In this document: positions 37,092-52,395 of the stretch, one piece after another
How positions within the stretch are numbered: position 1 is the first letter of the stretch
Layout of the letters: each line of letters starts with the position of its first letter
From: Kofleriaceae bacterium
Lineage (GTDB): Bacteria > Myxococcota_A > Polyangia > Haliangiales > Haliangiaceae
Assembly (NCBI GenBank): GCA_041389925.1
Contig: JAWKQX010000006.1
Span: 151,837 to 215,836, forward strand
Direction of reading: 5' to 3'
DNA: 64,000 nt
Translations under genes and position numbers: made by a program
Notes under the pieces: generated by a model
The model's database searches: none
Told to the model about the DNA's origin: nothing
Seen by the model: only the letters and a program-made list of their open reading frames with translations

Positions 37092-40000
37092 ATGACGCGC
37101 GACGGCGAGCCCATGGGCGCACAGTCCGAGGAGGCCCGCGCGGAGACGGGGACGGAGGCGGCGGCGGAGACGGTGACGGTGACGGTAGCGGAGACGGAGA
37201 CGGTCGCGGAGACGGAGACGGTCGCGGAGACGGAGACGGTGACCGTGACGGTAGCGGGGGCGGAGACGGAGGCGGGGACGGAGACGGTAGCGGAGACGGA
37301 GACGGTAGCGGAGACGGAGACGGTAGCGGAGACGGAGACGGAGGCGGGGACGGAGACGGTAGCGGAGACGGAGACGGTGACCGTGACGGTAGCGGGGACG
37401 GAAGCGGTAGCGGGGACGGATGCGGTCGCGGATGCGGGAGCGGAGACGGTCGCGGTCGCGGAGGCGGGGACGGAGGCGGTCGCGGAGACGGTCGCGGTCG
37501 CGGAGGCGGGGACGGTCGCGGAGACGGTCGCGGTCGCGGAGACGGTCACGGTCGCGGACACGGGGACGGTCGCGGAGGCGGTCGCGGTCGCGGAGACGGT
37601 CACGGTCGCGGACACGGAGACGGTCGCGGCCACGGTGGACCCACGGGTGCCCTCGGCGCACCGGGCGGTCACCGTCGCCGCGCGAGGTCTGGGCGATCGC
37701 GTCGGCTCCACGGCGCGCGGGCCGATCGCGCACCTCGACACCGTCAACGACAGCGCGCCACGCGCGAACGCCGCGGAGGCTCGCCCCGACTCCGCGCCGC
37801 CGGAGTCGCGCTACGCCGGACGTCGCGAGCTCGGCCGCGGCGGCATGGGGCGCGTGCTGGAGGCCGTGGATCGCCACCTCGGGCGTGTCGTCGCCGTCAA
37901 GGAGTCGTTCGCCACCGACGAAGATGGACGACAGCGCTTCGCCCGAGAGGTCGCGATCACGTCGCGGCTGGAGCACCCGGCCATCGTGCCGCTCTACGAC
38001 GCCGGCACCACCGCCCAGGGCCGGCCGTACTACGTCATGCGCAAGCTCACCGGGCGCGGCCTCGATCAAGTGATGACCGCGGCGACCACCCTCGACGAGC
38101 GCATCGCGCTCTTGCCCGCGCTCCTGACCGTCTGCGACGCGGTCGCCCACGCCCACGCGCGCCGCGTCGTGCACCGCGACATCAAGCCGGGCAACATCTT
38201 GATCGGCGATCACGGCGAGACCATGGTGATCGACTGGGGCCTCGCGAAGGTCATCGGCGAACCCGCCGACGGGCCGGCCGACGCCGCTTCCAAGCCCCAC
38301 GTCCTGCCGCCCGACGCGCCCACCGCGCCGCCGCGCGGCGAGCACCCCCCGCTGCCGGTCGACGAGCTCAAGACCGTCGTCGGCTCGGTGTTCGGCACCC
38401 CGGGCTTCATGTCCCCCGAGCAAGCGCGCGGGGAGCAGCTCGACCTGCGCGGCGACGTCTACGCCCTCGGCGCGACGCTGTATCACCTGCTGGCGGGGCG
38501 GCCGCCGCACGTGGGCAGCTCCGCGACCGAGGTGATCGATCGCGTCCGCGTCGAGCCGCCGCCGCCCTTGCCGGAGGTCTGCCCGGGCGCGCCGGCGGAG
38601 CTCGTCGCCATCGTCGACAAGGCCATGGCGTTCGAGATCTCGGACCGCTACGCCGACGCCTCCGCGCTCGCGGGGGATCTGCGCCGGTTCCTCGCCGGGC
38701 AGCTCGTCGCCGCGCACCGCTACACGCTGTGGCAGCGGCTCCGCCGCGCCGCGCGTCGGCACCGCGCCGCGTTCCTCGTCGCGGGCGGCTCGCTGCTGGT
38801 GGTCGCGACGCTGGCGACCCTCAGCGTCGTCCGCATCATCAGCGAGCGCGATCACGCCGACGCGGCGCGCCGGATCGCGCAGCTCGAGCAGCGGCGCGCG
38901 GAGGAGGCCCGTGACGAGGCGGCCCTCCGCGCGGAGGAGCTGATCGTCGCGCAGGCGCACGGCCTCATCGAGCCGAACCCGACCGCGGCGCTCGCGCTGC
39001 TCAAGCGCCTCGCGCCGGGCTCGTCGGCGTGGCCCAAGGCGCGGATGATCGCGATGGCGGCGCAGGCGGAGGGCATCACCCGCGCCGTGCCGGCGAGCCG
39101 CACGCGCGTGCCCTCGATCTTCGCCATGAACCCGCGCAGCGATACCCTGCTCATCGGCGAGGATCAAGGGCGCATCCGGCTGCTCGACCTGGAGTCGCTC
39201 CGCATCCGCGAGCTGCTCGATGTCGGCGGGCGCGCGTTCGGCTGCTGGGTCAACGGCGGCGCCGCCGTGCTGCTCGCGAACGAGGCGGTCGGCATGGTGC
39301 TCCACGACGTCGCGTCCAAGCAGACGCGCACGGTGCCCATCTCGGCGCCGGTGAGTGCGCTGGAGTGCCAGGGCGGCAAGGGCGCGGCCTACCTCGACAA
39401 GGCCGGCGGCCTCTGGGTGGTGGACTCGGTGCTCGCGCAGGTGCGTCGGGTCGAGGCCGGCCTCGCGGTCGAGCACCTCGCGGTGACCCCGGACGGCGAG
39501 TGGCTGATCGTCGGCGGGCGAGGCGAGGCCGCGATCCTCGATCGCGACGGGGGCGTGCACCGACGCTTCTCCGGGGAGACCCTCCGGGTCCTCACGTCCG
39601 CGGGCGGGCGCGTCGGCATCTTCTTCCGCGATCGCGCGCTGGAGCTCGATCCGAAGAGCGACGCCGCGCCCACGGAGATCCCCTTGCCGAAGTTCCCGCT
39701 GGCGATCTTCTTCGTCGGCGAGAAGCTGCGCGTGCTCAACGGGCAGAACCGCCTGTGGTTCTCCGACGGCACGCTGGATGTGGAGCTGCCCACCACCCCG
39801 CAGGGGAGCGCGCCGCTCGGCGATCGCACCGCCGCGTTCGGCCTCCACGACGGCTCCGTGTGGCTCACCGGCTGGTGGGGCGCGCGCATGCTGCGCACAC
39901 CGGCGACCAGCGCGCTGGTCCGGCTCGCGGGCCGCGCGGGCTCGCCGTGGCTCGCCGCATGGACGACCGAGGGCGTGCTGGTCTGGAACCTCAGCGGCGC

Positions 40001-41036
40001 GATCCCGCGAGCCATCGCGCTGCCCGCGTCCGTGACGCAGGTCCTGTTCGTCGGGGAGCATCGCCTGCTCGCCGCCGGCAACAACGACTGGATGTGCCTC
40101 GATCTCCAGAGCGGCGACCTCACGCAGCTCACCGCGGACCTGCCGTTCTTCGGGAGTCCGGTCGCCGATCTCGAGCGCGGGGATGTGCTGATGATCGACG
40201 TGCTGATCGGCCGGGTGATGTGGCTTCGTTGGGCCTCCAAGCAGCTCGTCAACGCGCCGGGCGAGCGGGTGGGCAGCGCCGCGCTCCTGGCCGATGGCAA
40301 GGTCGCGCTCGGTGCCACGGACGGGCGCCTGCTGATCGTCGATGATCAGCGCCGCAACCAGACCTTCACGCTTCGCCACCCGATCGTTGCGCTCAGCCGC
40401 CTCGGCGCGCACGGCGTGTTCGCCGCGGATCAGGAGGGCGAGGTCCTGGTCGTTGACGCCGCGACCGGAAAGGCGACGCGCGGTTCCCTCGGCGAGGCTC
40501 CGGACGGGCCCGCCACGGACGACGGCGAGGGCGGCGTGGTGCTCTCGGCTGGCGGCCGCCTGCTGCGCTGGCGCGCCGGCACGGTGGAGGAGCTGCTCCG
40601 CCTGGAGCATCCGGTCTCCGCCCTCACCCGCTACGAGCGGCACCTCGCGCTGCTCACCGCGACGGAGCTGTTCACGCTGGACCTCGATGCGCCGCCGCGG
40701 CTCCGGCGCATCTCGGTCGCCGCGAAGGATCAGCAGCTCAGCGACGGCGCGCGCTGGTCGATCGGCACCGGGCCGCGCGGCCTGGCCGACCTGGTGGACA
40801 TCGCCACCGGCGTGCGCTGGACCAAGTCGATGGTCGGCGGCCGCGCGACGTTCGCGGTCTCGCCGCGCGGCGACCACGTCGCGCAGGTGGTGGGACGACA
40901 GGTGGCGCTGTGGACGTACGAGGTGCCCGAGGATCCTGCGGAGCTGCGCGCGTGGCTCGATCGCGCGACCAACGCCGCGGTGGACGACAACCTCGACGTG
41001 GTGTGGACCGCGCCGAGCGTGCCGGCCGCGCCCTAG
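37092..41036 (+). CDS. Ser/Thr protein kinase with N-terminal (E/A/T-V) repeat region and large C-terminal beta-propeller-like domain; true start may be downstream (e.g. GTG about 37633)
   Basis: Hanks kinase motifs: [41 protein letters not shown] after the kinase ([22 protein letters not shown]). The C-terminal about 650 aa carry repeated G/W/D blades. The first about 180 codons are the GTSACS hexanucleotide repeat, in-frame with high GC3. Confidence 0.8.
37141..37636 (+). repeat. period-6 hexanucleotide tandem repeat (gagacg/gtcgcg/gtagcg/gtgacg units) inside the 5' end of the kinase ORF
   Basis: Read directly. About 80 units. The same repeat family occurs at 48105-48340, 49869-49920, 50452-50945 and 51608-51672. 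Confidence 0.85.
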
Positions 41037-42388: not shown

Positions 42389-42391
42389 CCC

Positions 42392-42793
42392 GTGAAGGTC
42401 AGGCGCTTCGATCCCGATGACGATCTGATCATCATAAAGGCGAAGGTCTTCGGGAAGCACGGGAGCCGCGTCGTGAGCCTCGCGCTCGATACCGCAGCGT
42501 CGCACACGCATGTCTCGCCAGACATCGTCGACGAGCTCGGCTACAGCCCGGTTGAGGGCGAGGCGATCACGTCGGTGCGCTCGGCCGTCGGCAAGGAGCC
42601 TGGCTACATGCTGCGCGTGCGGCGCTTCGAGTCGCTCGGCTTCGCGTTCGACGACTTCCCGATCCACGTCCACGACCTTCCGGCCGGCTTCGGGATAGAC
42701 GGGTTGCTCGGGCTGAGCTTCCTCAAGCGCTTCAACTACGAGATCCGATCCCTCGAGGGCCGCATCCTTGTGAGTCCTGCCGACGGCAGATAG
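42392..42793 (+). CDS. retropepsin-like (clan AA) aspartic protease domain protein, 133 aa
   Basis: LALDTAASHTHV (hydrophobic-hydrophobic-D-T/S-G/A-A motif). ...IDGLLGLSFLKRF, matching bacterial gag-polyprotein-type aspartyl protease domains. GTG start. Confidence 0.65.
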   Translation: MKVRRFDPDDDLIIIKAKVFGKHGSRVVSLALDTAASHTHVSPDIVDELGYSPVEGEAITSVRSAVGKEPGYMLRVRRFESLGFAFDDFPIHVHDLPAGFGIDGLLGLSFLKRFNYEIRSLEGRILVSPADGR

Positions 42794-48012: not shown

Positions 48013-48104
48013 GGCCGCGAGTGTACCCGCAACGGGCGCGGGTTCGTCCCAGGTGTCAGCGAGGGGCCTCCGTCCAACGTGTCAGCGATGTCTTGATCCG
48101 TTCC

Positions 48105-48340
48105 CCGCCGCCGCCACCGTCCCCGTCGCGGCCACGGCCACCGCCACCGTCACGGTCACCGTCCCCGTCACGGTCGCCGTCCCCGTCACGGCCACCGCCA
48201 CCGTCACGGCCACCGTCACGGTCACGGCCACCGCCACCGCCACCGTCACGGTCACCGTCCCCGTCACGGCCACCGCCCCCGTCACGGCCACCGCCACCGT
48301 CACGGCACGCCTCCGTCACCGTCACCGTCGCCGCCTCCGT
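48105..48340. repeat. GTSACS hexanucleotide repeat tract abutting the IS left end
   Basis: Read directly (ccgtcacggtcaccgtccccgtcacggccacc...). Continues on the other side of the IS (49869-49920). Confidence 0.8.
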
Positions 48341-49868
48341 CTATCGATCCCGCACAAGTTTCCGGATCAATTCAGTCCCTTAGCCTTCTCCGTCGAAAAA
48401 ACGTCAGATGGTCGTGATCCCCTCGGTCGATGAAAGAGCGGCTGGACGAGGATGCCATCGGTCGAATGCAGGACGACTTGAGCCGGTCCGACCTTGGGGA
48501 TCCCCGGCGGGTCTCTCGTGCACAACAGATCGTCGCTCGCCTAGCGGCGTCCCCGGGGTCTTCGCTTCCCGAAGCCCTGGTCACCGATGCGGAACTGGAG
48601 GGGGCCTATCGACTCTTCAACAACGACCGCGTGACCTTTGAGCAGCTCTTCGATGCTCATGCGGGGGGCACCGTCGAACGAGCGCGAGGTCGCAAGCTGG
48701 TCCTCGCGATCCACGACACCACGGCGTGCTCGTTCCGACATGCGGATCCTCGAGAGATCGGGTACCTCCACACGGGGAAGCCAGGGTTTCTGTTGCACAT
48801 GACGATGCTCGTCGATACGGAGCAGTGGCGGCGGCCTTTGGGGCTCACCCATGCAGAGGTCCTCACGCGCGACAAACCGAGCAGTCGCAAATCGCGCATG
48901 TCGGGGGGAGAGACGGCGAAGCTCGCCGACCGGGAATATCTTCGCTGGCAACGTGGCATTTCGGTCTCCGAGGCCCGGTTGCAGCAAGCGGGCGCGTCGA
49001 TCATCCACGTGGCAGACCGCGAGAGCGATTCGTACGAGTTGATGGCGACGTGCGTGTCCCTCGGGCAGCGGTTCATCCTTCGAGCCAAGACGCATCGCAC
49101 CGTGGACCTGGACGGCCAGCGTGTTGGAATTCGGGATTTCGTCGTCGAGCAAGGGCGTGTCCGATTGGAGCGCGAGGTCCCGTTGTCACGGCGCCTCGGT
49201 ACCTCCATGCCCAATCGACGGCGCGACCATCCGCCACGCGAGAGCCGCGTCGCTAAGCTTTGCTTCTCGACGACGCAGGTGACGTTGCGTCGCCCCAACA
49301 TCGTTCCCGCGCGCAACGCGCCCCCCACGCTTGAGGTCAACGCGCTGCACGTGTTTGAGCCCGAGCCGCCGCCTGGCCAAGAGGCCGTCGACTGGTTGCT
49401 GTACACGACGGAGCCCCTCGGTACACGGCAGGAGATCGAAGACGTCGTCGACTACTACCGATGCCGTTGGCAGATCGAAGAACTCAACAAGGCGCTCAAG
49501 ACGGGCTGCGTGGTGCAGGAACGCCAGCTCGAGTCATTCGACGCGCTCACCACGATGCTGGCGCTCTCGCTCCCCATTGCCGTCGAGTTGCTTGCGCTTC
49601 GTACCCTCGCTCGCTCCGACGAGACGGCCCCCGCCACGGAGGTGCTCTCAGAGGACGAGCTTGCCGCTCTTCGCCACATGAGCCATCGGCCCCTCCCGGA
49701 CCGCCCCACCGTGCAGGACGCTCTCTGGTGCATCGCCGGGATCGGTGGACACATCAAGAATAATGGCTCGCCGGGTTGGCAGGTCCTCCAACGCGGCATG
49801 GAAAAGTTCATGTCTTTCGCGGCCGGATGGTGCGCGGCAAAGGCCGCCGACTTGTGATCAATCGATAG
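48341..49868 (+). mobile_element. IS4-family insertion sequence (about 1.53 kb) with imperfect terminal inverted repeats and a 10-bp target-site duplication
   Basis: Left end ctatcgatcccgcacaag. Right end cttgtgatcaatcgatag (the inverted counterpart). Flanked by the direct repeat ccgcctccgt at 48331-48340 and 49869-49878. A single transposase ORF lies inside. Confidence 0.8.
48430..49857 (+). CDS. IS4-family DDE transposase (475 aa)
   Basis: YYRCRWQIEELNKALK = Y-2-R-3-E-6-K signature of IS4-family transposases. DDE-type catalytic-core composition. ATG 48430. Confidence 0.85.
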   Translation: MKERLDEDAIGRMQDDLSRSDLGDPRRVSRAQQIVARLAASPGSSLPEALVTDAELEGAYRLFNNDRVTFEQLFDAHAGGTVERARGRKLVLAIHDTTACSFRHADPREIGYLHTGKPGFLLHMTMLVDTEQWRRPLGLTHAEVLTRDKPSSRKSRMSGGETAKLADREYLRWQRGISVSEARLQQAGASIIHVADRESDSYELMATCVSLGQRFILRAKTHRTVDLDGQRVGIRDFVVEQGRVRLEREVPLSRRLGTSMPNRRRDHPPRESRVAKLCFSTTQVTLRRPNIVPARNAPPTLEVNALHVFEPEPPPGQEAVDWLLYTTEPLGTRQEIEDVVDYYRCRWQIEELNKALKTGCVVQERQLESFDALTTMLALSLPIAVELLALRTLARSDETAPATEVLSEDELAALRHMSHRPLPDRPTVQDALWCIAGIGGHIKNNGSPGWQVLQRGMEKFMSFAAGWCAAKAADL

Positions 49869-49920
49869 CCGCCTCCGTCACCGTCTCCGCCCGTCTCCGC
49901 CACCGTCTCCGTCTCCGTCA
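49869..49920. repeat. short GTSACS hexanucleotide tract between the IS right end and the four-helix-bundle gene A
   Basis: ccgcctccgtcaccgtctccgcccgtctccgccaccgtctccgtctccgtcac read directly. Confidence 0.7.
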
Positions 49921-49948
49921 CAAAATGGCGCCCTTGCCGCCTCGAACG

Positions 49949-50272
49949 TCACCGAGGGGCTGCGAGCCGGTAGAGCATGCCGCCGAGCCGGTCCGCGATG
50001 GCATGGGGCGACTCGGTGCCGTCGAGCCAGCCCTTGGCCGTCGCGAGCGCCAGCGCGCTGCGCACCTCGCGGAGGCTGCCGTACGCGATGCGGAACAGCT
50101 GCACGCGGTCACCGCCGAAGCGCCCGCCGGCCTCAGCGAGGTTCAGCGCGACGCTATCCGCGGCGCGATCGAGCTGACGAGCAAGGTCTCGGTCGCGCTG
50201 GCGAACCGCCGCGAGCGGGCCGCGAAGACTACGAACCAGGTCGAGCGAGAGGTCATAGGCGAGAAAGGGCAT
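49949..50272 (-). CDS. four-helix-bundle protein (TIGR02436 / 23S rRNA intervening-sequence protein / Avd-like), copy A, 107 aa
   Basis: MPFLAYDLSLDLVRSLRG...LARQLDRAADSVALNLAEAGGRF...QLFRIAYGSLREVRSALALA. Conserved xxAxSIxxNIAEG and LxEL motifs of the family. GGAGA Shine-Dalgarno 9 nt upstream. Confidence 0.8.
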   Translation of the reverse strand: MPFLAYDLSLDLVRSLRGPLAAVRQRDRDLARQLDRAADSVALNLAEAGGRFGGDRVQLFRIAYGSLREVRSALALATAKGWLDGTESPHAIADRLGGMLYRLAAPR

Positions 50273-50421
50273 CGGTCATCTCCAGGGGTGGTTTCTCCCC
50301 CCAAGCGGAACGAACCGTGACGCGCGCTGAAAAAACCAACGCTCGCGCTCTCGTCCACACTCTCTCGCGCGCGGCGCGGTTCTTTCCGCGTCCGGGAGAA
50401 CCACCCCTGGAGATGGCCGAT
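50270..50421. promoter_or_regulatory. about 150-bp imperfect palindrome duplicating the RBS/start context of copy A in inverted orientation (CATCGGTCATCTCCAGGGGTGGTTTCTCCCC ... GGGAGAACCACCCCTGGAGATGGCCGATG)
   Basis: Arms read directly. Left arm includes ATG+SD of 49949..50272(-). Right arm gives an identical SD+ATG (50419) for the + strand TV-repeat ORF. Inner arms also partly palindromic. Confidence 0.6.
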
Positions 50422-50949
50422 GCCCGGCTCGACCTGAGCTCGCTCCTGACCGCCGTGGCCGTGACCGTGACCGTGGCCGTGACCGTGACCGTGGCCGTCG
50501 CCGAGACCGCGACCGTGGCCGTCGCCGAGACCGTGGCCGTCGCCGAGACCGCGACCGTGGCCGTCGCCGGGACCGCGACCGAGACCGTCGCCGGGACCGC
50601 GACCGAGACCGTCGCCGAGACCGCGACCGTGGCCGTCGCCGAGACCGCGACCGTGGCCGTCTCCGAGACCGCTGCCGCCACCGTCTCCGTCTCCGTCACC
50701 GTCACCGTCACCGTCTCCGTCTCCGTCACCGTCACCGTCACCGTCTCCGCCACCGCCACCGCCACCGTCTCCGTCTCCGTCTCCGCCACCGTCCCCGTCT
50801 CCGCCACCGCCACCGCCACCGCCACCGCCACCGTCTCCGTCTCCGTCTCCGTCTCCGCCACCGCCGCCGCCGCCGTCACCGCCTCCGGCTCCGTCACCGA
50901 GGCCGTTTCCGCTGCCGAGGCCGTTTCCGCTGCCGAGGCCCGCGGCTGA
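50419..50949 (+). CDS. putative repeat protein ORF-X (MADARLDLSSLL + about 150 aa of TV/AV/ET dipeptide repeats); may be a non-functional by-product of the palindrome
   Basis: Same SD (ctGGAGAtggccgATG) as the four-helix-bundle gene. The first 15 aa resemble the four-helix-bundle N-terminus. The body is encoded entirely by the hexanucleotide repeat, in a high-GC3 frame. Confidence 0.3.
   Translation, partial: DARLDLSSLLTAVAVTVTVAVTVTVAVAETATVAVAETVAVAETATVAVAGTATETVAGTATETVAETATVAVAETATVAVSETAAATVSVSVTVTVTVSVSVTVTVTVSATATATVSVSVSATVPVSATATATATATVSVSVSVSATAAAAVTASGSVTEAVSAAEAVSAAEARG
50452..50945. repeat. largest GTSACS hexanucleotide tract (about 75 units) followed by two 18-bp repeats (gccgaggccgtttccgct)
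   Basis: Read directly. Every frame on both strands is open through the tract. Confidence 0.85.
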
Positions 50950-51001
50950 CACCGGGCTGCTTCGGTCCTCGTCGGCAGGGGCTCCTTGGGGCGGCGAAGT
51001 C

Positions 51002-51194
51002 AGGCCGTCGTCCGTCGTCGTCTCGCCCCGCGCCCCGACGCGCACCGGCCCGCGCCGAGCGCCGGGGGCGCGGTGCAGGAGCGGGTGGCCGCCGCATGAA
51101 CAGGGTTGGAGGAGGCGCGCGCGTCGAGGGGGCGCTCGTCACGGGCCGTGCGCGTTGGGGGCGCTGGGGGCGAGAGACGACGACGGACGACGGC
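51002..51194. mobile_element. MITE-like element: 28-bp inverted repeats (aggccgtcgtccgtcgtcgtctcgcccc / ggggcgagagacgacgacggacgacggcct) flanking about 135 bp, just upstream of four-helix-bundle gene B
   Basis: Arms read directly at 51002-51029 and 51166-51194. No convincing ORF between them. Confidence 0.4.
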
Positions 51195-51228
51195 CTGCTC
51201 TTAGGCCCCTCACCAAAGGAGTTCCCTA

Positions 51229-51552
51229 ATGCCTTTCGATGTTCTCGAAACCTCCCTCAGCGTCATGGAGCGGCTCACGCCAGTCGAAGCGAAGCTCCGC
51301 CAGCGCCGAAAGTCCCTTGCCGATCAGGTCGGCCGAGCCGCGGAGAGCGTGTCGCTCAACATCAGCGAAGCGCGCGAGCGCGCCGGCCTCGATCGCGCGG
51401 ATCTCTTCCGACGCGCGGCCGGCTCCGCGAGCGAGCTCACGACGGCGCTGCGAATCGCGCAGCTCCGTGGCTACATCACGGCAGCAGACTTCGCGGCAGT
51501 CGACGCCATGCTGGATCGTGTCCGCGCGATGCTCTGGCGGCTCACTCACTGA
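51229..51552 (+). CDS. four-helix-bundle protein (TIGR02436 / 23S-IVS / Avd-like), copy B, 107 aa
   Basis: MPFDVLETSLSVMERL...LADQVGRAAESVSLNISEARERA...DLFRRAAGSASELTTALRIAQ. AAGGAG Shine-Dalgarno 9 nt upstream. Paralog of copy A in opposite orientation. Confidence 0.8.
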   Translation: MPFDVLETSLSVMERLTPVEAKLRQRRKSLADQVGRAAESVSLNISEARERAGLDRADLFRRAAGSASELTTALRIAQLRGYITAADFAAVDAMLDRVRAMLWRLTH

Positions 51553-51587
51553 CGGCACGCCAAGGGCGCCTCGGCTGCCGCGGCGGT

Positions 51588-51607
51588 GACTTGCGACCAA
51601 TCGATAG
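51588..51607 (+). mobile_element. solo IS4-family right-end remnant (gacttgcgaccaatcgatag) followed by a hexanucleotide tract
   Basis: Matches the IS right end gacttgtgatcaatcgatag at 18 of 20 positions, in the same orientation relative to the adjoining repeat tract. Confidence 0.5.
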
Positions 51608-51672
51608 CCGTCACGGCCACCGTCACGGTCACGGTCACGGCCACCGTCCCCGTCCCCGTCACGTCCACCGTC
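51608..51672. repeat. GTSACS hexanucleotide tract read in-frame into the SDR gene's upstream ORF
   Basis: ccgtcacggccaccgtcacggtcacggtcacggccaccgtccccgtccccgtcacgtccaccgtc. Confidence 0.75.
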
Positions 51673-51690
51673 TCGAGTATGCTCCGCTCC

Positions 51691-52395
51691 ATGAGAACCC
51701 TCTCCAAGCGACATGTCGTGGTCACCGGCGCCACCGGCGCGCTGGGCAGCGCCGTGGTGGCCAGGCTGCTCGACCTCGGCGCGGAGTGCCACTTGCCGAT
51801 GCGCGAGCCGGCGGTGCCGGAGCACCTGCCCTGGCGCGGTCACGCCCAGGTCCACGCCACGCCGAGCGTCTCGCTCGAGGACGAGGCCGCGGTGACCGCG
51901 TACTACGCCGGCCTGCCCGAGCTGTGGGGCTCGGCGCAGCTCGTCGGCGGCTTCGCGATGAAGCCGCTGCTCGACACCTCGCTCGCGGAGCTGCACGCGC
52001 AGTGGAGCCTCAACGTCGCCACCTGCTTCCTCTGCTGCCGCGAGGCGGTGCGCGCCATGCGCCGCAGCGGCGGGGCCCAGGGCGGCCGCCTGATCAACGT
52101 CACGGCCCGCGCCGCGACGAGCGCCGCGCCCGGCATGCTCGCGTACACCGCGGCCAAGGCGGCGGTGGCGTCGCTCACCCAGACCCTGGCGGCGGAGCTC
52201 GCGCAGGAGCAGATCCTCATCAACGCGATCTCCCCGTCGCTGATCGACAGCGCCGCCAACCGCGCGGCCATGCCCGACGCCGACTTCGACAAGTGGCCCA
52301 AGCCCACCGAGCTCGCCGACGCCATCGCCTTCCTGCTCTCGCCCGACAACGCGCTGACCTCCGGCGCGATCGTTCCGGTGTACGGCCGCGCCTAG
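51691..52395 (+). CDS. SDR-family NAD(P)-dependent oxidoreductase; start uncertain (ATG 51679/51691; the ORF is open back to GTG 51586 through the repeat)
   Basis: VVVTGATGALGSAVVARL (TGxxxGxG). YTAAKAAV (YxxxK). ...LINAISPSLIDS. Confidence 0.8.
   Translation: MRTLSKRHVVVTGATGALGSAVVARLLDLGAECHLPMREPAVPEHLPWRGHAQVHATPSVSLEDEAAVTAYYAGLPELWGSAQLVGGFAMKPLLDTSLAELHAQWSLNVATCFLCCREAVRAMRRSGGAQGGRLINVTARAATSAAPGMLAYTAAKAAVASLTQTLAAELAQEQILINAISPSLIDSAANRAAMPDADFDKWPKPTELADAIAFLLSPDNALTSGAIVPVYGRA

Follow-up and report, generated by a model that had tools for sequence, protein, structure and literature searches.

A candidate dispersed cassette of Kofleriaceae myxobacteria, combining a four-helix-bundle gene, a hairpin leader and (CCG NNN)n arrays

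The window analysed here is a stretch of 64,000 nucleotides from a Kofleriaceae bacterium (GenBank assembly GCA_041389925.1, contig JAWKQX010000006.1, positions 151,837 to 215,836 of the forward strand), with a G+C content of 71%. Our subject is a pair of small genes, copy A and copy B, that lie head to head in this window among hairpin-forming leaders and arrays of the general form (CCG NNN)n. An earlier reading of the letters alone, referred to below as the original prediction, had described the two genes as TIGR02436-type paralogs of 107 aa in opposite orientation, and had proposed a profile hidden Markov model search against TIGR02436 and PF05635 as the way to check this. Both genes passed that search, with scores above the curated cut-offs of the two models (24 bits for TIGR02436 and 33.8 bits for PF05635), so that both belong to the family; each encodes 107 aa, and the two proteins are 42% identical. 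The genes and the features directly attached to them are the following.

49949-50272, minus strand: four-helix-bundle gene copy A, of the A-type subfamily (TIGR02436 46.2 bits, PF05635 43.7 bits)
50262-50430, minus strand: hairpin leader of copy A, whose 3' arm carries the Shine-Dalgarno site and the ATG, both mirrored in the 5' arm (z = -9.8)
50975-51235, plus strand: hairpin leader of copy B, identified by homology to B-type leaders (z = -8.3); it contains the 'MITE-like element' of the original prediction (51002-51194)
51229-51552, plus strand: four-helix-bundle gene copy B, of the B-type subfamily (TIGR02436 51.8 bits, PF05635 54.4 bits)
51553-51588, plus strand: short 3' flank common to other B-type genes (columns about 1027-1065 in the alignment of B-type loci)

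The AlphaFold2 model of copy B, calculated as a monomer, is an up-down four-helix bundle (predicted local distance difference test score 96.3; helices at residues 2-26, 28-49, 54-79 and 85-106) that can be superposed on solved members of the family. When this model was used in Foldseek searches, the best matches were two stand-alone TIGR02436 proteins, XCC0516 (2GSC) and BT_0352 (2RLD), both with five chains, A to E, per entry (template-modelling (TM) scores of 0.82-0.89; 20-32% identity). They were followed by Avd, the four-helix-bundle component of diversity-generating retroelements (DGRs), both alone (4DWL) and in the DGR ribonucleoprotein (8UB7), with TM scores of 0.80-0.86 and 12-13% identity. 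A sequence search against solved structures returned 2GSC as its sole match (E = 8e-7). Proteins of the PF05635/TIGR02436 family are widespread, being found in the intervening sequences (IVSs) of 23S ribosomal RNA (rRNA) genes, in DGRs and near CRISPR loci. To our knowledge the stand-alone members have no known function, and we know of no cis-acting hairpin or tandem array described for XCC0516 or BT_0352. These stand-alone proteins, the closest by both sequence and fold, do not explain the locus, their function being likewise not known.

Each of the two genes is preceded by a strong hairpin. Upstream of copy A, the imperfect palindrome of about 150 bp that had been predicted was recovered as a palindrome of 159 bp, with 27-nt arms (50267-50293 and 50399-50425) that are 96% complementary and a folding energy of -113.6 kcal/mol (z = -9.8). 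Upstream of copy B, the arms are 29 nt long (51001-51029 and 51169-51197) and 93% complementary, and the stem extended over 50975-51235 reaches -183 kcal/mol (z = -8.3), with an AAGGAG Shine-Dalgarno site at its base paired with CTCCTT. The second hairpin had been described as a 193-bp element resembling a miniature inverted-repeat transposable element (MITE). Its inverted repeats are real, but it does not stand as an independent element, being part of the conserved leader of B-type genes: positions 51039-51574 can be aligned with the leader and gene of B-type loci elsewhere, and all homologous copies lie directly 5' of a four-helix-bundle gene and end at its Shine-Dalgarno site, these copies being known from four-helix-bundle loci, with no search for stand-alone hairpins outside such loci made. 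We rejected 51001-51197 as a MITE, since its flanks, GCGAAGT and CTCTTAG, show no target duplication.

The same design was found at related loci. All of the leaders that were folded for B-type genes with at least 70% protein identity to copy B form a near-perfect hairpin of 200-250 nt, and the hairpin is less clear in the distant relatives at loci L055, L059 and L069. A-type loci were sampled thinly (L120 and L121, plus the A-type partners in B-type loci); the intact leader of L120 folds in the same way, and that of L121 has the same design with its hairpin divided by an insertion. Overall, the leader hairpin is present 5' of most of the intact A- and B-type genes examined in related genomes, with a 3' arm that ends at the Shine-Dalgarno site or within it and that, for copy A, includes the ATG as well. 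An RNAalifold consensus of 19 leaders contains 36 pairs, 20 of them with double compensatory changes (one pair, for example, occurs as UA in 7 leaders, AU in 4, GC in 3 and CG in 3). These compensatory pairs surround an invariant, asymmetric core, GCGC..CC...GCCGAGCGC paired with GCGCTCGTCAYGG....GCGC, which includes conserved C·A and C·T mismatches; it is common to A and B leaders, with CCGCGCCG in the 5' arm and CGTCACGG in the 3' arm. Judged by homology and predicted folding, the 'palindrome' of copy A and the 'MITE-like element' of copy B are one and the same conserved leader, a hairpin of 160-260 nt.

The insertion in L121 is an observation in its own right. It is an IS110-family element (L121:1491-2960, with DEDD_Tnp_IS110 and Transposase_20 domains) lying within the 3' arm of the A-type leader, between two head-to-head genes, and its insertion point falls exactly in the conserved core, at CGTC|ACGG, so the leader core may be a preferred IS110 target. 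Relatives of IS110 insert in repetitive extragenic palindromic (REP) sequences, with which the leader can be compared: like REP sequences and bacterial interspersed mosaic elements, Correia-type elements and MITEs, it is multi-copy and intergenic and consists of a strong hairpin with a conserved core. It differs from all of them in that the hairpin is seen only with a four-helix-bundle gene, in that no target-site duplication accompanies it, and in that the unit encodes a protein under selection.

Beyond the leaders and the genes lie period-6 arrays, here called tracts. In the window they occupy 48098-48340, 49869-49921, 50441-50945 and 51608-51674, which agrees with the hexamer tracts that had been predicted beside both genes; such tracts recur at related loci. 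The tracts, together with a motif that abuts the first of them and the open reading frame (ORF) that had been named ORF-X, are as follows.

48052-48097, plus strand: tract-start motif GGTGTCAGC-N29-GTGTCAGCGATGTCTTGA, directly abutting tract T1
48098-48340, plus strand: tract T1a, the outer array on the 3' side of gene A, with units CCGTCA, CGGCCA and CCGCCA, split by an insertion sequence
49869-49921, plus strand: tract T1b, the part of T1 beyond the insertion sequence, of the same strand type and unit flavour as T1a
50441-50945, no strand assigned: central array between both leaders, consisting of T2 and T3
50441-50660, no strand assigned: tract T2, with units CCGTGG, CCGTCG, CCGAGA and CCGCGA
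50661-50945, no strand assigned: tract T3, with units CCGTCT, CCGCCA and CCGTCA and a terminal (CCGAGG CCGTTT CCGCTG) x 2.4
51608-51674, plus strand: tract T4, with units CCGTCA, CGGCCA and CGGTCA, ending 5-17 nt before the start (ATG 51679 or 51691) of a short-chain dehydrogenase/reductase (SDR) gene
50413-50949, plus strand: ORF-X, in the GNN-NCC frame of the array, judged not to be a gene (predicted at 50419-50949)

When 123 tracts were pooled, 120 of them had a CCG phase, with C at 85%, C at 84% and G at 87% in the first three positions of the unit, followed by three positions that are nearly free. The tracts are concentrated around the genes: they cover 11.7% of the bases within 1 kb of four-helix-bundle genes and 0.25% of those more than 2 kb away, an enrichment of about 47-fold, and about 0.08% of 181 kb of control DNA taken around SDR homologues, where there was one tract region and no four-helix-bundle gene. 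In 33 of the 48 loci whose upstream sequence was long enough, a tract ends within 450 bp of the gene, usually at the foot of the hairpin on its 5' side. Upstream of B-type genes CCG lies on the sense strand in 40 of 43 cases, and all four tracts flanking the A-type genes of L120 and L121 have CGG on the sense strand; therefore, a head-to-head A/B pair can share a single array polarity. In T1 and T4 of the window, CCG and CGG units are mixed on one strand. The tract-start motif also abuts a tract, with at most 3 mismatches, in four element copies (L036, L037, L040 and L042) of the metagenome-assembled genome (MAG) MFD05502.bin.2.30.

Around this constant phase the unit types vary from genome to genome, among the copies of a single genome and from one side of a gene to the other. 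In MFD05502, for instance, pure runs of (CCGAAG)n, (CCGAAT)n and (CCGATG)n begin at the same base after a shared, conserved 3' flank. The clearest comparison for the window comes from L001, a metagenome contig of 654 bp that covers the same locus with flanks 95% identical: at the position where the window has 67 nt of CCGTCA, CGGTCA and CGGCCA units, L001 has at least 124 nt of CCGCAA, CCGCCT and CCGACT units. As far as such sequence comparisons go, the arrays turn over far faster than their flanks, and the higher-order periods of 12-54 nt found within them point to slippage or unequal exchange. Loci of the same context from four samples were identical and hence uninformative on tract polymorphism.

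One further relation between tracts was seen in the window. T2 (50454-50515) is complementary to T4 (51602-51663) over 62 nt at 79%, the best 32 nt reaching 94%, and they could pair as a long stem around T3, leader B and gene B; at other loci this is not a general rule.

The nature of the arrays bears directly on ORF-X, which had been proposed as a gene driven by a divergent twin start, created by an inverted duplication of the Shine-Dalgarno site and ATG of copy A. The mirrored Shine-Dalgarno site and ATG are indeed present, but this ATG, at 50420, does not share the frame of ORF-X and reaches a TGA after five codons. Since the palindrome spans the ribosome-binding site, the mirrored signals are a by-product of it. 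The proposed start at 50419 is not a start codon either, the in-frame ATG being at 50413. Moreover, no (CCG NNN)n array can have a stop codon in its GNN-NCC frame, which makes the length of the ORF uninformative, and ORF-X is for this reason probably not a gene, as far as can be told from the sequence. One could nonetheless suppose that the arrays are coding, with ORF-X and a mirror ORF on the opposite strand specifying low-complexity repeat proteins of TV, TE or GD type from the mirrored ribosome-binding sites. The palindromes do mirror the Shine-Dalgarno site (and at copy A the ATG), as they also do at the left gene of L121, the third codon positions in the open frame of the window are all G or C, and in the MAG that is closest to the window four of seven inferred A/B pairs skip one accession number, which fits an annotated gene between the two. 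However, unit composition, and hence the implied amino acids, is not conserved between homologous tracts, between genomes or even at the same locus in L001; G+C at the third positions of the GNN-NCC frame, pooled over tracts, is about 44%, the figure for most real genes of the window being roughly 90% or more; CCGTAG units place stop codons in the other candidate frame; and the same composition is found in T1 and T4, outside any such ORF. In profile searches ORF-X gave sub-threshold, low-complexity family matches only. We rejected a conserved coding frame in the arrays on the unit types and the pooled third-position G+C, and regard the coding explanation as a whole as highly improbable.

Two features of the locus belong to an insertion sequence (IS), and they account for the IS4-end motif that had been reported, together with a hexamer tract, on the 3' side of both genes.

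48341-49868, plus strand: complete IS4-family insertion sequence, with a transposase gene at 48430-49857, inverted repeats and a 10-bp duplication
51589-51607, plus strand: solo IS4 right inverted repeat ACTTGCGACCAATCGATAG, with no partner end and no transposase

The transposase of the complete element scores 281.7 bits against NF033590 (cut-off 160) and carries Tnp_DNA_bind and DDE_Tnp_1 domains. Its terminal inverted repeats of 19 bp (48341-48359 and 49850-49868) match the pattern CTATCGAT....CACAAGT without mismatch, and it is flanked by a perfect 10-bp target duplication, CCGCCTCCGT, at 48331-48340 and 49869-49878, so that transposase, inverted repeats and duplication all place it in the IS4 family. 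Removing it in silico rejoins T1a and T1b, which have 12 nine-mers in common in direct orientation and none inverted, into one continuous array. The motif itself, the 13-mer CAATCGATAGCCG, occurs exactly twice in the window, at 49859 and 51598, where 0.09 occurrences would be expected by chance. Thus the two motif copies and the tracts that had been noted are real, but the parallel drawn between the two genes did not hold. Both copies lie on the plus strand and therefore in opposite orientation relative to genes A and B, the order is gene A, tract, motif on one side and gene B, motif, tract on the other, and the motif is the end of an IS. A composite IS4 transposon reaching from 48341 to 51607 was considered and rejected, its flanks CCGCCTCCGT and CCGTCACGGC being mismatched, whereas the IS by itself has a perfect target duplication. 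The solo end is present in L001 as well and at no other fetched locus. Because of this absence the IS4 motif is not a property of the four-helix-bundle genes, and the expectation that it would recur at their other copies was not borne out.

The presence of an IS within an array raises the possibility that the arrays are merely targets, that is, unrelated (CCG NNN)n microsatellites into which cassettes and ordinary ISs land, with no functional link to the protein. T1, T3 and T4 are alike in strand type and unit flavour, as though one old array had been interrupted by the cassettes and by the IS4 element with its clean duplication. Other ISs are found at related elements, namely the IS110-family element of L121 and a DDE-transposase gene that ends about 300 bp upstream of the four-helix-bundle gene of L007, and arrays without such a gene exist at 37134-37640 and in L081. 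Against this, the steep fall in tract density away from the genes and the near absence of tracts in the control DNA suggest that free-standing targets are rare. The MFD05502 arrays, which begin at the same base and yet have their own unit type in each copy, fit growth in place better, and the polarity of the arrays is fixed relative to the type of gene. We therefore consider it unlikely that the arrays serve as targets alone.

To see how far the arrangement extends, we turned to relatives of the two proteins. The searches returned 515 relatives of copy B and 91 of copy A, most of them on contigs shorter than 2 kb (mostly of 0.5-2 kb), as is expected of repeats that break assemblies. Many of the genomic matches lie at contig ends, and short-read assemblies of soil Myxococcota appear to break systematically at these cassettes. 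The 'Gemmatimonadaceae' label of one protein cluster is probably a mistake of binning, its contig also being part of a Kofleriaceae MAG. When species-representative genomes were scanned with a B-type profile, 66 loci were obtained, with at least 7-10 in single genomes, nearly all of them in Kofleriaceae, Haliangiales or MAGs unclassified beyond Myxococcota or 'delta proteobacterium'; the same profile found no relative in a scan of viral contigs. The closest matches to the proteins of the window, at 96-97% identity, come from a Kofleriaceae MAG (copy A, at 96%, falls in a cluster of 11 members). That MAG has ten NCBI accession numbers for A-type proteins and seven for B-type proteins; in seven cases an A and a B number are adjacent or one apart. 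This numbering, from which gene order and copy number are read, suggests at least seven A/B gene pairs. With hairpin leaders and tracts at dozens of related loci, the organisation is plainly not unique to one copy; uniqueness is what would have spoken against the original prediction. It also disposes of the view that the window holds two ordinary paralogs among simple repeats with no recurring organisation. Genomes of high G+C content are rich in simple repeats and spurious palindromes; however, hairpin z-scores of -8 to -10, together with control loci that lack the organisation and its recurrence elsewhere, refute coincidence, to which we give practically no credence.

The recurring unit can be delimited by comparing its copies. 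An identical protein of 106 aa, P0019, is encoded in six different gene neighbourhoods, and the DNA shared by these is a unit of about 700 bp (about 350 bp upstream, the gene, and about 30 bp after it) that is 82-92% identical and has tracts as its upstream bound. In general, homology between copies stops sharply at the tracts and 40-100 bp past the stop codon. The ratio of non-synonymous to synonymous substitution rates (dN/dS) between copies in one genome is 0.07-0.12, and therefore the copies are kept functional by purifying selection. A different kind of comparison is offered by the orthologous loci L029 and L034 of two MAGs, where the upstream flank is 82-87% identical, the tract is in the same place and the gene is only 71% identical; in L034, about 1.3 kb of additional DNA separates the tract from the gene. 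The pattern suggests, at the level of sequence, either replacement of the cassette or a further insertion.

Inverted pairs, such as the one in the window, are frequent. Among the fetched loci there are 23 (11 head to head and 12 tail to tail), and nine copies in MFD05502 have the layout of the window: array, gene on the minus strand, leader, array, leader, gene on the plus strand, array. In these nine copies, which are 85-94% identical to one another, arms of about 530 bp are 76% identical as inverted repeats and the middle array measures 236-490 bp. Inverted pairing is thus commonly part of the design of the cassette.

Taken together, these comparisons make it very likely that a dispersed family of cassettes exists with the anatomy described here. 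Its unit would consist of a (CCG NNN)n array, a hairpin leader of 160-260 nt, a PF05635/TIGR02436 gene of about 107 aa and a short 3' flank, often with a further array next to it. The window contains a head-to-head A/B pair across a 500-bp array, with an IS4 element inserted later in one outer array and a solo IS end beside the other. We think it probable, on balance and with the mechanism set out below included, that a composite repeat specific to the Kofleriaceae/Haliangiales lineage (Myxococcota) exists in many copies, and that the stretch from about 48.05 to 51.67 kb of the window is one of them.

The nearest known concept is the 23S rRNA IVS carrying an S23p/PF05635 ORF, as in helix 45 of Coxiella burnetii and in Leptospira. 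The protein family is the same, and the IVS is likewise a small selfish insert, in which long inverted repeats accompany the ORF and pair into an extended duplex. In Coxiella, the IVS with its S23p ORF, regarded as a selfish element of horizontal origin, is cut out by RNase III (PMC4990558). The cassette differs from an IVS in several respects. It does not lie in an rRNA gene, as an IVS in helix 25 or 45 would: its neighbours are metabolic genes, and Rfam gave no family at the gathering score and no rRNA in the 64-kb window, and for the region itself, at E up to 1, a chance microRNA match only. The whole of the conserved hairpin is 5' of the ORF, with its end at the Shine-Dalgarno site, whereas the terminal repeats of an IVS would form a stem around the ORF; such a stem could arise by pairing of T2 with T4 around gene B, but tracts at other loci are not consistently of inverted polarity. 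Cassettes are present in many copies per genome, often as inverted gene pairs, and their ORF is under purifying selection, whereas the ORF of Coxiella is decaying and apparently not expressed. We know of no report of (CCG NNN)n arrays in IVSs.

The resemblance to Avd invites another reading, in which the protein is an orphan retroelement accessory, an Avd-like partner of a reverse transcriptase encoded elsewhere, the hairpin and arrays being template or target and the NNN positions the outcome of targeted diversification. The fold is like that of Avd, as shown by the TM scores given above, NNN varies while CCG is kept, and the array has been rewritten between strains with 95% identical flanks. 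Avd forms a positively charged pentameric barrel that requires and binds a dedicated structured RNA element next to the template, in cis to its own gene region (bioRxiv 10.1101/2023.10.23.563531), and among Pfam families PF05635 is the one that accompanies DGRs most often (PMC10053308). However, neither the adjacent reverse transcriptase nor the template/variable repeat pair of a DGR was found. Pfam scans of ORFs chosen by codon-position GC or by length (34.4-63.6 kb) revealed no reverse transcriptase and no nuclease within 10 kb on either side, and there was no reverse transcriptase among the precomputed Pfam matches for genes around ten related places. A repeat search over 49700-51800 recovered the arrays, the two hairpins and short chance pairs only, with no template/variable repeat pair. 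Moreover, the proteins are nearer in sequence to the stand-alone 2GSC/2RLD clade than to Avd, the cassettes are multi-copy and paired, periods of 12-54 nt and pure runs are typical of slippage or unequal exchange and not of random substitution, and the variation is not limited to positions that could be adenine in a template. The retroelement reading is accordingly one to which we attach very little weight, and the original prediction was right that no reverse transcriptase is present here and that the association of four-helix-bundle genes with palindromes and hexamer tracts is an uncharacterised one outside the DGRs.

Other known systems share features of the arrays. TRAP recognises GAG/UAG triplets separated by 2-3 nt, HutP recognises UAG plus 4 nt, and the distal face of Hfq reads A-R-N repeats. 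The arrays resemble the targets of these readers of spaced triplets in repeating an invariant triplet with a free spacer just 5' of a hairpin that is predicted to be regulatory. The folds of the proteins are unrelated, and the arrays, at 8-80 units, far exceed those targets in length; they are hypervariable as well and are also present downstream of the gene. In the literature that we searched, with coverage lacking most subscription journals, the arrangement is without description, and this repeat unit of Kofleriaceae myxobacteria is apparently new.

How might such a cassette work? By analogy with 2GSC, 2RLD and Avd, the protein would be a pentameric barrel that binds nucleic acid, with the leader hairpin of its gene or the CCG array as candidate ligand. 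The hairpin would bury the ribosome-binding site in any transcript that contains both arms, and translation could be released either by a transcription start inside the hairpin or by RNase III cleavage of the long duplex, as for the 23S IVS. Control of translation by the hairpin is a tentative proposal that we consider possible. The CCG triplets with their three free spacer bases would form a cis-acting array, for which two uses can be imagined. In the first, the oligomeric protein would read the array with one triplet per subunit, in the manner of TRAP, HutP and Hfq, the binding of Avd to its RNA element being a precedent within the family; that it binds the CCG array at all strikes us as rather unlikely. 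In the second, the arrays would provide recombination-prone homology for duplication of the cassette and its exchange between loci, for which the L029/L034 pair, with its flank 82-87% and its gene 71% identical, is one piece of support; such array-mediated exchange seems to us somewhat doubtful, if less so than binding. A bolder combination of these ideas would be a self-contained nucleoprotein system of an undescribed kind, formed by the paired proteins and the arrays, in which a pentameric barrel of Avd/IVS type reads CCG triplets six bases apart in RNA or single-stranded DNA, controls the hairpin-gated expression of its gene and promotes the expansion, rewriting and recombination of the arrays, the cassettes spreading, and trading places among arrays, without a transposase. 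We offer this as speculation that is improbable as it stands.

Several observations weigh against the composite repeat and its proposed mechanism. As to dispersal, the cassette has yielded no transposase, no target-site duplication and no empty site (SDR orthologues of 53-58% identity lack the element and are too distant to count as empty sites), and the pairs L029/L034 and window/L001 show that the element can stay at one locus across speciation. As regards the leader, its antisense strand folds more stably than the sense strand in 40 of 54 loci (p = 2e-4, the loci being related and not statistically independent, as holds for all of the related loci used here), which would be explained by a structure in DNA or in the opposite strand no less well than by a hairpin in the mRNA; both leader copies of the window are opposite to this trend, with the sense strand the more stable. 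No promoter emerged from a scan for sigma-70 promoters and intrinsic terminators, which gave a single weak terminator-like site, within palindrome A. As regards the arrays, the polarity of downstream tracts is inconsistent (13 versus 7), and a binding site would not need arrays of up to 80 units with such rapid turnover. The CCG positions are only mildly depleted in single-base variants, with 30 as opposed to 47 at the free positions (p = 0.07); selection on the CCG positions is suggested by composition. Finally, there are the two tracts, at 37134-37640 and L081:3000-3153, that have no four-helix-bundle gene.

These two tracts occur in a similar context. The one in the window is a (CGG NNN)n array lying in frame at the 5' end of a serine/threonine (Ser/Thr) kinase ORF (37092-41036), whose kinase domain begins at residue 244, and the one in L081, the single array in the 181 kb of control loci, is likewise at the 5' end of a Ser/Thr kinase ORF. 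Both may be low-complexity N-terminal extensions or leader DNA.

The genes in the neighbourhood of the pair in the window are housekeeping and metabolic ones, including those for an FGGY kinase, a pyridoxal-phosphate (PLP) decarboxylase, YebC, an SDR, a thioesterase and a VWA protein, amongst others. PADLOC gave no defence-system match for the protein of copy A or copy B. Neither a promoter nor a Shine-Dalgarno site could be recognised for the SDR gene of the window, which starts 5-17 nt after T4. Its transcripts may have to come through gene B and the array, and changes in the length of the array could then affect it. About 7 kb upstream of the pair, a small ORF at 42389-42793 encodes a retroviral-type aspartyl protease domain (Asp_protease_2, E = 3e-11), and no other feature of a retroelement was noticed near it.

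For genomics, the cassettes matter because they visibly break short-read assemblies of soil myxobacteria, and because their arrays yield spurious long ORFs that annotation pipelines may call genes. For the organisms that carry them, the fast-changing arrays placed directly before neighbouring genes, the SDR gene here and a Ser/Thr kinase gene in two cases, could be switches of the contingency type. For the protein family, a group of unknown role now comes with two conserved cis elements, which allows concrete experiments on binding and processing to be designed, and the nucleoprotein system outlined above, if true, would be the first function for stand-alone PF05635 proteins.

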